DNA of 32,000 nucleotides from positions 510,001 through 542,000 of the forward strand of contig NC_009033.1 of NCBI RefSeq assembly GCF_000015945.1, read 5' to 3'. The translations under genes were made by a program, and so were the position numbers. The notes beneath the pieces are model-generated. The model had not been told where the DNA came from. It saw only the letters and a list, made by a program, of their open reading frames with translations, and did no database searches. Position 1 is the first letter of the stretch. Each line of letters starts with the position of its first letter. Source of the DNA: Staphylothermus marinus F1. GTDB lineage: Archaea > Thermoproteota > Thermoprotei_A > Sulfolobales > Desulfurococcaceae. Below, piece after piece: positions 30,203 to 32,000 of this stretch.

Positions 30203-30892
30203 TCATTCATGATTCTTTGAAACTATATGCTTGTAGAGCCTTATTATAGATCTATATGAAACTACTCCATCCCTAACTATGAGGGGTTTTTCCGATGTGA
30301 GATCTATTACTGTAGAAGGTTCCCCTATAGGGGCTGTGCCTGAATCTATATATAGATCAATATTGTTGCCCAACTGTTTAATTGCTTCCTCAATATTCTT
30401 AGCTGGTTTTAACCCGCTTATATTTGCGCTAGTACCTGTAATGAATCCACCGTTGAGTTCGGCTAGTTTTCGAGGCAGAGGTGATGCTGGTACTCTAAAC
30501 CCGATTTTTTCTGTACCTAAATGTATTTCTTCAGAGAATATACTGTCTATAGGCTTCAATATAACTGTAACAGGTCCCGGCCAGATTACTTCGAGAAACC
30601 GCTGTAAATTATGGTTTATATTTGTAATAGAAAAAACAGCTTTAGGACTGGAAGCTAAAAGCGGAATTGGTTTTCCCTTTCTTTTCTTTACAACATATAT
30701 TCTTGAAACACACTCATCTCTAAAAGGATCAGCAAATATTCCATATAATGTATCGGTTACCCCGACAACTAAACCACAACTTTTCAGGATCCTATATGCT
30801 TCCTGAATAATGTTTATAGATGGATTTATGAAGTTTGCTCTCAAAATGTTCAAAATACCCCTTCCCCCGACAGGGGCAAATATATAAAGCAT
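30203..30892 (-). CDS. YrdC/Sua5-family protein (threonylcarbamoyl-AMP synthase-like)
   Basis: VTDTLYGIFADPF, KKRKGKPIPLL, WPGPVTVIL and TGTSANISG are present. At 229 aa it has the YrdC domain only. Confidence 0.85.
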   Translation of the reverse strand: MLYIFAPVGGRGILNILRANFINPSINIIQEAYRILKSCGLVVGVTDTLYGIFADPFRDECVSRIYVVKKRKGKPIPLLASSPKAVFSITNINHNLQRFLEVIWPGPVTVILKPIDSIFSEEIHLGTEKIGFRVPASPLPRKLAELNGGFITGTSANISGLKPAKNIEEAIKQLGNNIDLYIDSGTAPIGEPSTVIDLTSEKPLIVRDGVVSYRSIIRLYKHIVSKNHE

Positions 30893-30920
30893 TATTCATG
30901 TTTAACACTCTAGGATACTC

Positions 30921-30930
30921 TATATAAAAA
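30921..30930. promoter_or_regulatory. shared TATA element for divergent (near-)leaderless transcripts
   Basis: TATATAAAAA reads as TATA-like on both strands. Its centre (about 30925) is 33 nt from ATG 30892 (minus) and 33 nt from ATG 30958 (plus). That is consistent with TSSs about 27 nt from the centre and leaders of about 6-7 nt. Confidence 0.5.
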
Positions 30931-30957
30931 TTATCTAGTAAAGGAGCGTGTTGAGGG

Positions 30958-32000
30958 ATGGGTTTTTAGCTATAGTGAGGAAAAAATTAAGTCATTGTAT
31001 GTTGATAGAAGACAGCTCCGAGAAATAATTAAGGAACTTAAGAAATGGAGTGCTCCAGCTACTGTTCTCCTAAGTCTATATATTCCTCCCGGTAGGCCGG
31101 TTAGTGATGTATTAAATATGCTTCGACAAGAACTCTCAATTACTGATAACATAAAATTAAAGAAGACTAGATCAGCTGTTCAGAGAGCATTGAAAGCCGC
31201 TATTGAGAGATTAAGTAAGATACCGAAGATCCCTGATAATGGATTAGCATTATTTTGTGGCGAAGACATGGATACAGGAGACTTTATATGCTTAATGTTT
31301 GTTCCCCCAGAGAAAGTACCTGTTTATTTCTATAGGACAGATAAACATTTCCATACAGAATTCCTAGAAGAAATGGTTGTTGAAAGCAATCTAGTAGGCC
31401 TTATAATTATTGAAAGAGACGCTGCTACTTTGGGGTTATTGAAAGGGAGCAGGCTAGAAGTGTTAGAGGAGATAGAGGATTATATACCTGGAAAACATCA
31501 TAGAGGAGGACAGAGTCAGCGAAGATTTGATAGAATAATAGAGCAAATGGTTCATGACTTCTATAAACGTGTAGGAGAACATGCTAAGGAAAAGTTCTTA
31601 CCTCTACTTGAACAGGGCAAATTAAAAGCTATACTTATTGGTGGACCAGCATATAGTAAATATGATTTCGTTGAGGGAGACTATCTAGATTACAGATTGA
31701 GACAACTTGTTCTACCAAGACTTATAGATGTAAGTTATCAAGGAGAAGTGGGTTTAAGAGAAATGGTTATGAAAGCCTCTGATCTGTTAAAGGAACAAGA
31801 ATACGTGGATGCGTTAAAAGCTGTGGAAGAATTTAAGCTCAATCTAGCAAAAGATGATGGAATGATAATATATGGTGAAGAAGATGTTAAGAGAGCGCTT
31901 GAAATGGGCGCTATTAAAACATTAATTATAGATGAAGATAGACCAGATGCTCATCAATGGGCTGAGCTAGCAAAGAAATATGGTGCTAAACCAGTATTTC
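30958..32000 (+). CDS. prf1: peptide chain release factor aRF1 (3' partial); the N-terminus needs either a +1 shift at 30964-30970 or TTG 30995 initiation
   Basis: The frame phased on 30968 encodes ...[48 protein letters not shown] and more, and runs off the window end. This frame has no ATG or GTG upstream of the conserved body. Confidence 0.9.

Follow-up and report, generated by a model that had tools for sequence, protein, structure and literature searches.

Synthesis of the release factor aRF1 in Staphylothermus marinus and related Crenarchaeota probably depends on a programmed +1 frameshift at an in-frame UAG codon

The gene of aRF1, the class-I release factor of Staphylothermus marinus F1, appears to begin in one reading frame and to continue in another. 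It was analysed in a stretch of 32,000 nt (GCF_000015945.1, NC_009033.1, positions 510,001-542,000 of the forward strand), referred to below as the window, whose coordinates are used throughout; all features described are on the plus strand unless stated otherwise. Comparison with related genes indicates that aRF1 is very probably made only by way of a programmed +1 ribosomal frameshift, which takes place at a "shifty stop", TTT TAG C, as the first-pass annotation of this DNA had proposed; the frame break is conserved in about 100 loci, and both of its flanks bear the marks of translation. Judged from the alignments, the change of frame is obligatory and its position can be fixed exactly. We infer that the mechanism is ribosomal rather than transcriptional and that it is stimulated by an element resembling a Shine-Dalgarno (SD) sequence, and a feedback of aRF1 on its own synthesis is likely. 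aRF1 reads all three stop codons, and a regulatory circuit of this kind is well known in bacteria, where prfB, the gene of RF2, regulates itself through a +1 shift at CUU UGA C, stimulated by an SD-like element upstream.

The 5' end of the gene consists of a short open reading frame, ORF0, in the frame of the translation start (0 frame). It reads ATG GGT TTT TAG (30958..30969), with ATG at 30958-60, GGT at 30961-63, TTT at 30964-66 and TAG at 30967-69, and is translated as MGF followed by the stop, one base out of frame with the aRF1 body. A run of five T residues (T5) occupies 30963-30967. The slippery sequence U_UUU (30964..30967) would allow peptidyl-tRNA-Phe on UUU 30964-66 to re-pair on UUU 30965-67, and the in-frame UAG is followed by C (30967..30970), which completes the shifty stop. 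The aRF1 body, carrying the motifs LSLYIPPG and GGQSQRR, is translated in the +1 frame (30968..32000) and exceeds the end of the window. This frame, phased on 30968, is open from the TAG at 30911-13 and contains no ATG or GTG; its sole canonical start is a TTG (30995..30997), which is chosen by gene callers (protein P0001, MYVDRR...) and rejected here as the true start. The sequence at 30949-30981 is gttgaGGGATGGGTTTTTAGCTATAGTGAGGAA. The positions given in the first-pass annotation for the codons, the T run, the GAGGG and the A/T-rich box (both discussed below) all agree with the letters of the window, and translation confirmed its statement on the starts of the aRF1 frame. The 12-mer ATGNNNTTTTAG was found once in the 32 kb window against 0.85 expected, so that the motif alone is within chance; what makes it significant is that it stands where aRF1 begins and that about 100 orthologous loci have conserved it.

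The identity of the protein is clear. The window protein scored 418.3 bits against TIGR03676, the equivalog model of aRF-1 (cut-off 234.7), matched the structure of Aeropyrum pernix aRF1 (3AGK, E = 2.8e-140) and contains the GGQSQRR motif, which places it in the aRF1/eRF1 family. The 3AGK chain has 8 residues before the position that matches Ser12 of the predicted MGF-SYSEEK... product, and the N-terminus of the structure is of similar length. Membership of the bacterial prfB (RF2) family was considered and rejected on the basis of the same two matches, RF2 being only a functional analogue. The bodies of the frameshift-type genes are intact, with 341-375 codons and all motifs present; together with the identical break in independent assemblies and its conservation in 101 loci, this excludes a pseudogene or an artefact.

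A homopolymer error in the T5 run had been named as a possibility. The protein cluster P0001, 99% identical to the window protein, is encoded on two contigs from independent assemblies, one of SRR5453780 and one of ERR15087768, and both carry the same gggtttttagc with the same flanks as the window, so the run is real. Relatives were collected by two scans anchored on a tblastn match, one of genomes, with one genome per GTDB species (54 loci returned, 53 evaluable), and one of metagenomes (80 further loci); the loci were pooled and regions of 123 nt compared. All relatives from both scans are at least 56% identical to the window protein, the sampled range ending short of Sulfolobaceae, Thermoproteales and other phyla. 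Of the 53 evaluable genome-scan loci, 43 have this layout in the corresponding position, and the pooled set holds 101 frameshift-type loci with 84 distinct regions, at 56-89% protein identity with the window. A slippery codon followed by an in-frame stop had been predicted to be conserved in relatives, and in all 101 of these loci aRF1 lies in the +1 frame behind such a site. The layout, [ATG/GTG]-(2-3 codons)-NTT-TAG-N, occurs in Staphylothermus, Thermogladius, Desulfurococcus, Thermosphaera, Ignisphaera and Zestosphaera.

Among the 84 distinct regions the stop is TAG in every case (84), and each has an ATG (67) or a GTG (17) in frame with it. The start is followed by two sense codons in 74 sequences and by three in 10; the slip codon is TTT in 57, ATT in 18, CTT in 7 and GTT in 2, and the stop is followed by C in 64 sequences, by T in 18 and by A or G in one each. 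Besides ATG GGT TTT TAG C and ATG AGT TTT TAG C, the sites include ATG GGC TTT TAG C in Thermogladius (complete genomes L016 and L018), ATG AGT CTT TAG C in Desulfurococcus (including D. mucosus GCA_001006085.1; the D. mucosus locus L057 is from a complete isolate genome), ATG AGC GTT TAG C, GTG GGT TTT TAG C in Thermosphaera, ATG TCT ATT TAG T in Ignisphaera and GTG-NNN-NNN-ATT-TAG-C in Zestosphaera and allied metagenome-assembled genomes (MAGs). The frameshift entry point is 34 codons before the LSLYIPP anchor. Thirty-one loci are not of the frameshift type, among them Ignicoccus, Acidilobaceae, Pyrodictiaceae, a few others and L074, which is probably of the CTT type. In the ten that the genome scan contributed, an ordinary ATG, GTG or TTG stands in frame at the equivalent position, 30-35 codons before LSLYIPP; Pyrodictium, for example, reads ATG GTT AGC GAA CAA GAA (MVSEQE) in frame.

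Three variants of the site deserve a separate description. The locus L074 (metagenome contig Ga0065719_106579) reads ATG GGT CTTTT AGC, one T more than its closest relatives (ATG AGT/GGT CTT TAG C); the extra T, which puts the ATG in the -1 frame relative to aRF1, may be a genuine variant and is probably a homopolymer error in the contig. In Zestosphaera L044 (about 2940-2975), two tandem shifty stops share one 0 frame, ATG TTT TAG G and then GTG GGT CAT ATT TAG C, and a +1 slip at either would enter the aRF1 frame, giving MF|RWVIFSEY... or MGHI|SEY.... Two in-frame relatives, L130 and L133, carry GGG GTT TAG TTG GAA GAA, in which GTT TAG stands in the aRF1 frame directly before a TTG start; this could be what is left of a shifty stop, or else a variant form of one.

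Orthologues also bear on where translation begins. In 21 distinct sequences there is no ATG, GTG or TTG in the aRF1 frame between the upstream stop and LSLYIPP, and in 36 no in-frame start is present at a distance of 15 codons or more from LSLYIPP. The aRF1 frame of 35 sequences is open for at most 2 codons ahead of the entry codon; in one example, ATGAGTTTTTAGC, a TGA overlaps the ATG in the +1 frame, and the change of frame is confined to the AGT-TTT codons. The equivalent of TTG 30995 is CTA, CTC, CTT and the like in many orthologues. The annotated N-termini of the clade (P0001-P0025) are mutually inconsistent, being scattered internal starts such as MDKQRL or upstream extensions in the aRF1 frame, and some remove the first helix or truncate the domain (MLSLYIPPG). 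They include RefSeq proteins of Desulfurococcus amylolyticus, D. mucosus and Thermogladius sp. 4427co, and RefSeq proteins of Desulfurococcus and Thermogladius begin downstream of the junction. Such scattered N-termini are the usual symptom of an unrecognised frameshift. The predicted trans-frame N-termini are (M)GFSYSEEK in the window, (M)SLSYSEDQLESLR in D. mucosus and (M)SISVSEK in Ignisphaera, and none of the annotated proteins P0001-P0025 carries the predicted trans-frame N-terminus.

The coding signal begins at the junction. Among 30 distinct Desulfurococcaceae-type sequences, entropy is about 0 at codon positions 1 and 2 and high at position 3, and this periodicity sets in exactly at the AGY codon that overlaps TAG (30968-70 in the window). 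The codons used for Ser are AGT, AGC and TCT, and those for Glu are GAA and GAG. The variation at third positions and the switches between AGY and TCT codons of Ser show that the SYSEE... segment upstream of TTG 30995 is translated. On the other side of the junction, codon 2 of ORF0 encodes only small residues (Ser 40, of which 35 AGY and 5 TCY, Gly 32, Val 1 and Pro 1), which points to a constraint at the protein level, as expected if ORF0 supplies the mature N-terminus (M-G/S-F | S-Y-S-E-E).

At the site itself the conservation extends to nucleotides that the protein would not demand. The slip codon is never TTC, yet TTC makes up 61% of the Phe codons in the gene bodies (689 vs 442); T-T-T-A-G is invariant in the alignment of the 30 Desulfurococcaceae-type sequences, and the entry codon is AGC in 78% of cases, compared with 48% AGC among AGY codons of the bodies (binomial p = 4.5e-8, uncorrected for phylogeny). 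From this pattern of an NTT slip codon, a constant TAG and a C bias after the stop, it can be concluded that the site is under selection at the nucleotide level. According to anticodon rules, re-pairing on UUU is perfect for UUU and involves one G-U pair for CUU. TAG ends 36% of the flanking genes, so it is a genuine stop here. The first-pass annotation had further argued that UAG followed by C is a weak stop context; stop usage in the flanking genes lends this no support.

Two stretches upstream of the slip codon are complementary to the anti-SD sequence. The one nearer to it, GAGGG (30953..30957), ends 6 nt before the slip codon and is the candidate stimulator of the frameshift; the other, GGAGCGTGT (30943..30951), is a possible ribosome-binding site of ORF0. 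GGAGCGTGT matches the family consensus GGTG, which lies 7-9 nt before the ATG, the G at -19 from TAG being present in 93% of sequences, and GAGG is likewise conserved in the family alignment (G 93% and 83%). Duplex energies were computed against a general crenarchaeal 16S 3' tail, GAUCACCUCC, rather than one from these genomes. Complementarity to this tail is highest at -12 to -6 from the slip codon in each of the two classes of sites, whether the start stands at -6 or at -9; in the three-codon class the GTG start lies inside the SD-like element, and in the two-codon class (74 sequences) there is a second peak at -19 to -13 from the slip codon. Since the position of the peak is the same in both classes, the SD-like element is tied to the slip site and not to the start. 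GAGGG probably stimulates the shift. Scans of the window with Rfam and for tRNA gave no match, and the window contains no 16S 3' end from which the anti-SD could be defined directly.

The upstream region contains a TATA-like A/T-rich box, tatataaaaa (30921..30930), presumed to be a promoter element. As a promoter it would presumably set the transcription start site a few nucleotides before ATG 30958; in related loci, A/T is only slightly enriched at -38 to -28 relative to the start codon. The near-leaderless mRNA suggested earlier is doubtful, and a short leader seems more likely because conserved anti-SD complementarity precedes the ATG. The divergent neighbour (30203-30892, minus strand) encodes L-threonylcarbamoyladenylate synthase (Sua5/TsaC; TIGR00057, 145 bits) of tRNA t6A37 synthesis. 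The spacer between its ATG (30892) and that of ORF0 is 65 nt long (30893-30957), with the single A/T box about midway, and the distance of 33 nt from the box to either ATG had been calculated correctly; this arrangement suggests that the two genes share or use a bidirectional promoter. The synteny of Sua5/TsaC and aRF1 is not kept in Desulfurococcus mucosus.

The proposed course of events may be outlined as follows. Translation would initiate at AUG 30958, and GGU and UUU would be decoded. With UAG 30967-69 in the A site and peptidyl-tRNA-Phe in the P site, either aRF1 would terminate translation and release the tripeptide MGF or, in competition with termination, the tRNA would slip by +1 from UUU 30964-66 to UUU 30965-67, the shift being probably stimulated by GAGGG 6 nt upstream. 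After the slip AGC 30968-70 would be decoded, yielding full-length aRF1 beginning with MGF-SYSEEK.... Because the bypassed UAG is read by the gene's own product, negative feedback is expected: high aRF1 activity would reduce aRF1 synthesis and low activity would raise it, as in bacterial prfB. The arrangement might have arisen in one step, by insertion of a single T into an ancestral NTT AGC, which would create both the TAG and the frame change; the constancy of TAG would be explained in this way, since the Ser AGY codon is conserved in in-frame relatives.

Several points weigh against this proposal. The shift and its efficiency are deduced from the comparison of sequences. The slip codons AUU and GUU re-pair on UUU at only two of the three positions, and the SD-like element stands 6 nt from the slip codon, compared with 3 nt in Escherichia coli prfB; the 16S 3' tail behind the complementarity profile is a general crenarchaeal one and does not come from these genomes. 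TAG is not rare as a stop, and TAG-C is not avoided at genuine gene ends. RNAalifold predicted no conserved pairs around the site in 26 orthologues, although such sites do not need RNA structure, and the fold of the window site is no better than that of shuffled sequences (z = -0.18). Finally, the sub-lineage of L140 and L141 uses an in-frame GTG start, and thus the frameshift is dispensable.

This last point is also in favour of an alternative in which the frameshift is real and senses nothing: an ancestral insertion of 1 nt (e.g. NTT AGC to NTT T AGC) would have been inherited and bypassed at a roughly constant, sufficient efficiency, with no feedback dependent on aRF1. One T suffices to create the TAG together with the frame change, in accordance with the in-frame ATG GTT AGC of Pyrodictium; the site was lost without replacement in L140 and L141, in-frame clades are nested among frameshift-type clades in the gene tree, and TAG-C is not avoided at genuine stops. 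However, selection maintains the stop, the NTT slip codon, the SD-like element with its fixed spacing and the C bias across very divergent lineages, and aRF1 by definition acts on whatever stop codon occupies the A site, which makes some dependence on its activity hard to avoid. A frozen insertion is considered unlikely. Transcriptional slippage, in which RNA polymerase drops one U and the mRNA is in frame with no shift of the ribosome, might be favoured by the T5-T6 runs of the window and most Desulfurococcaceae, but known sites need homopolymer runs of about 7-9 (PMC5009743). At 27 distinct sites (ATT, CTT, GTT) the run is only T3, GGC/AGC TTT TAG sites have 3-4 Ts at most, and the invariant in-frame TAG would be left unexplained, which makes this mechanism extremely improbable.

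Initiation inside the gene, at TTG 30995 in the window, would reduce ATG-GGT-TTT-TAG to an unrelated or regulatory upstream mini-ORF. The TTG does exist, is picked by gene callers and, in the alignment with 3AGK, leaves the first helix of the N domain intact. Nevertheless, the equivalent codon is no start in most orthologues, 21 sequences are devoid of any in-frame start before LSLYIPP and 36 have none at least 15 codons ahead of it, the N-termini chosen by gene callers are scattered and in part truncate the domain, and the stretch coding for SYSEE... ahead of the TTG has the periodicity of coding sequence and switches between synonymous codons of Ser. The start-less orthologues and the translated SYSEE... 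segment rule out genuine TTG initiation as it had been put forward for the window, and internal initiation in general appears very improbable. The probability that T5 is a sequencing or assembly error, with a true T4 and an ordinary ATG start, is practically negligible: homopolymers are error-prone, and L074 seems to carry one extra T, but T5 is identical in assemblies from two sequencing runs, the same frame break recurs in 100 other loci including complete genomes, and many sites (ATT TAG, CTT TAG, GTT TAG) have a T3 run only.

The history of the site can be followed in part. In a rough neighbour-joining tree of aRF1 genes, the frameshift type comprises Desulfurococcaceae (TTT, CTT, GTT), Ignisphaera (ATT), the clade with GTG, three codons and ATT, and several isolated lineages; nested among these are the in-frame Pyrodictiaceae and one further group that is in frame. 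The topology suggests that the site either originated early and was lost in some lineages or was gained independently more than once. Within the clade characterised by the GGW motif (see below), L140 and L141 (395-415; proteins P0123-P0125) read GTG CAC GGA TTT AGC in frame, with no start codon in the 0 frame. The frameshift requirement appears to have been lost there through a change of 1 nt, with the string ATTTAGC retained. P0123 and P0124 (L140, L141) are truly in frame. Another apparent in-frame revertant, P0137 (L139), was rejected; it has an ordinary GTG ATT GGT ATT TAG C site and a fortuitous in-frame TTG.

A second peculiarity of the Zestosphaera-like clade is that GGW replaces the universal GGQ motif of peptidyl-tRNA hydrolysis, in the context PGKHS[KR]GGWSQRR. 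The W codon is TGG, and the flanking codons vary synonymously. GGW was present in 38 of the 224 retrieved protein clusters, from NCBI, JGI, ENA and Logan; the loci include L044 (Zestosphaera tikiterensis NZ3), L049, L051, L053 and L054, and the proteins are P0121-P0148, P0150-P0152, P0158, P0186, P0191, P0194, P0195, P0198 and P0202. The GGW-bearing aRF1 genes also have the frameshift site. No description of a GGW aRF1 was found in the literature, in which subscription journals were thinly covered. One singleton protein cluster, P0178, has GGK (GGKSQRR) at the same position, which may be an error.

As to the literature, the absence of any report of the aRF1 frameshift had been surmised earlier, and none was found, with the same thin coverage of subscription journals; neither the 2016 Atkins review nor the GeneTack survey mentions it. 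On balance, it seems probable that in a large clade of hyperthermophilic Crenarchaeota, to which Desulfurococcaceae, Ignisphaera, Zestosphaera and relatives belong, the class-I release factor can be made only via a +1 slip at a UAG recognised by this factor. Autoregulation that senses termination would then have been invented independently for the third time, the earlier cases being bacterial RF2 and the mimivirus factor. No archaeal cellular gene had so far been reported to have a conserved +1 programmed frameshift; this one would occur at codon 4 with an SD-like stimulator on an archaeal ribosome. If so, it would overturn both the statement that the cellular homologues of archaea and eukaryotes lack autoregulatory recoding of this kind (PMC3521657) and that of the 2021 review of archaeal recoding, which gives the -1 frameshift of fucA1 as the only one reported in archaeal cells and does not mention aRF1 (PMC8211752). 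It would also be a case of convergent evolution, in which the logic of XUU-stop-C plus an SD-like element was reached in a non-homologous release factor. The site of about 25 nt offers a natural and easily mutated handle for termination efficiency, for SD/anti-SD interaction in elongation and for +1 slippage on archaeal ribosomes at high temperature. In practical terms, the annotated aRF1 N-termini are wrong and mutually inconsistent in over 100 genomes and MAGs, those of Desulfurococcus and Thermogladius in RefSeq among them, and annotation pipelines would need an archaeal counterpart of the prfB frameshift rule.

Among known systems, fucA1 of Saccharolobus solfataricus, with a -1 frameshift on A_AAA_AAT (PMC1616953, PMC8211752), is likewise a case of programmed ribosomal frameshifting in a crenarchaeal cellular gene, but it differs in direction, concerns a non-essential glycosidase and is confined to two strains. 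The frameshifts of Euplotes (AAA UAA/UAG) and antizyme (UCC UGA) resemble that of aRF1 in the +1 shift of a P-site tRNA with a stop in the A site, and in antizyme the frameshift is also the sensor of a feedback loop; both are eukaryotic and use other slip codons, the Euplotes sites are genome-wide and non-regulatory, and antizyme senses polyamines. Closer in family are the eRF1-type factors Mimivirus R726 and Megavirus mg280, which need a UGA readthrough and a +1 shift (Jeudy et al. 2012, PMC3521657), the shift sites being CUU UAG C and CUU UAA C, respectively. R726 belongs to the eRF1/aRF1 family and has a +1 shift, and Desulfurococcus aRF1 has exactly CTT TAG C (CTT occurs in 7 distinct sequences). 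R726 differs in the additional UGA readthrough upstream and in being a viral gene translated by eukaryotic ribosomes. The aRF1 body is open from the entry codon onward, with no second in-frame stop, and so falls outside the Mimivirus-type recoding class.

Bacterial prfB is, with R726, the nearest precedent. In prfB and aRF1 alike, a release-factor gene is split into a short 0-frame ORF and a +1-frame body, an XUU slip codon re-pairs on UUU, and the stop in the A site, often followed by C, is read by the encoded factor. An upstream stretch complementary to the anti-SD, in aRF1 a candidate stimulator, lies at a fixed distance, there is no downstream RNA structure, and the site is widely conserved with sporadic loss. 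The differences are as follows: RF2 is not homologous to aRF1, the stop is UGA in prfB and UAG in aRF1, and the slip codon is CUU in prfB and mostly UUU in aRF1, with AUU, CUU and GUU variants. The site is at codon 26 in prfB, whereas in aRF1 it is at codon 4-5, ORF0 encoding a tripeptide, and the spacing of the SD-like element is 3 nt and 6 nt, respectively. Moreover, RF2 is one of two factors, whereas aRF1 reads all stops; by analogy with prfB, the circuit in these archaea would sense the total termination capacity of the cell.

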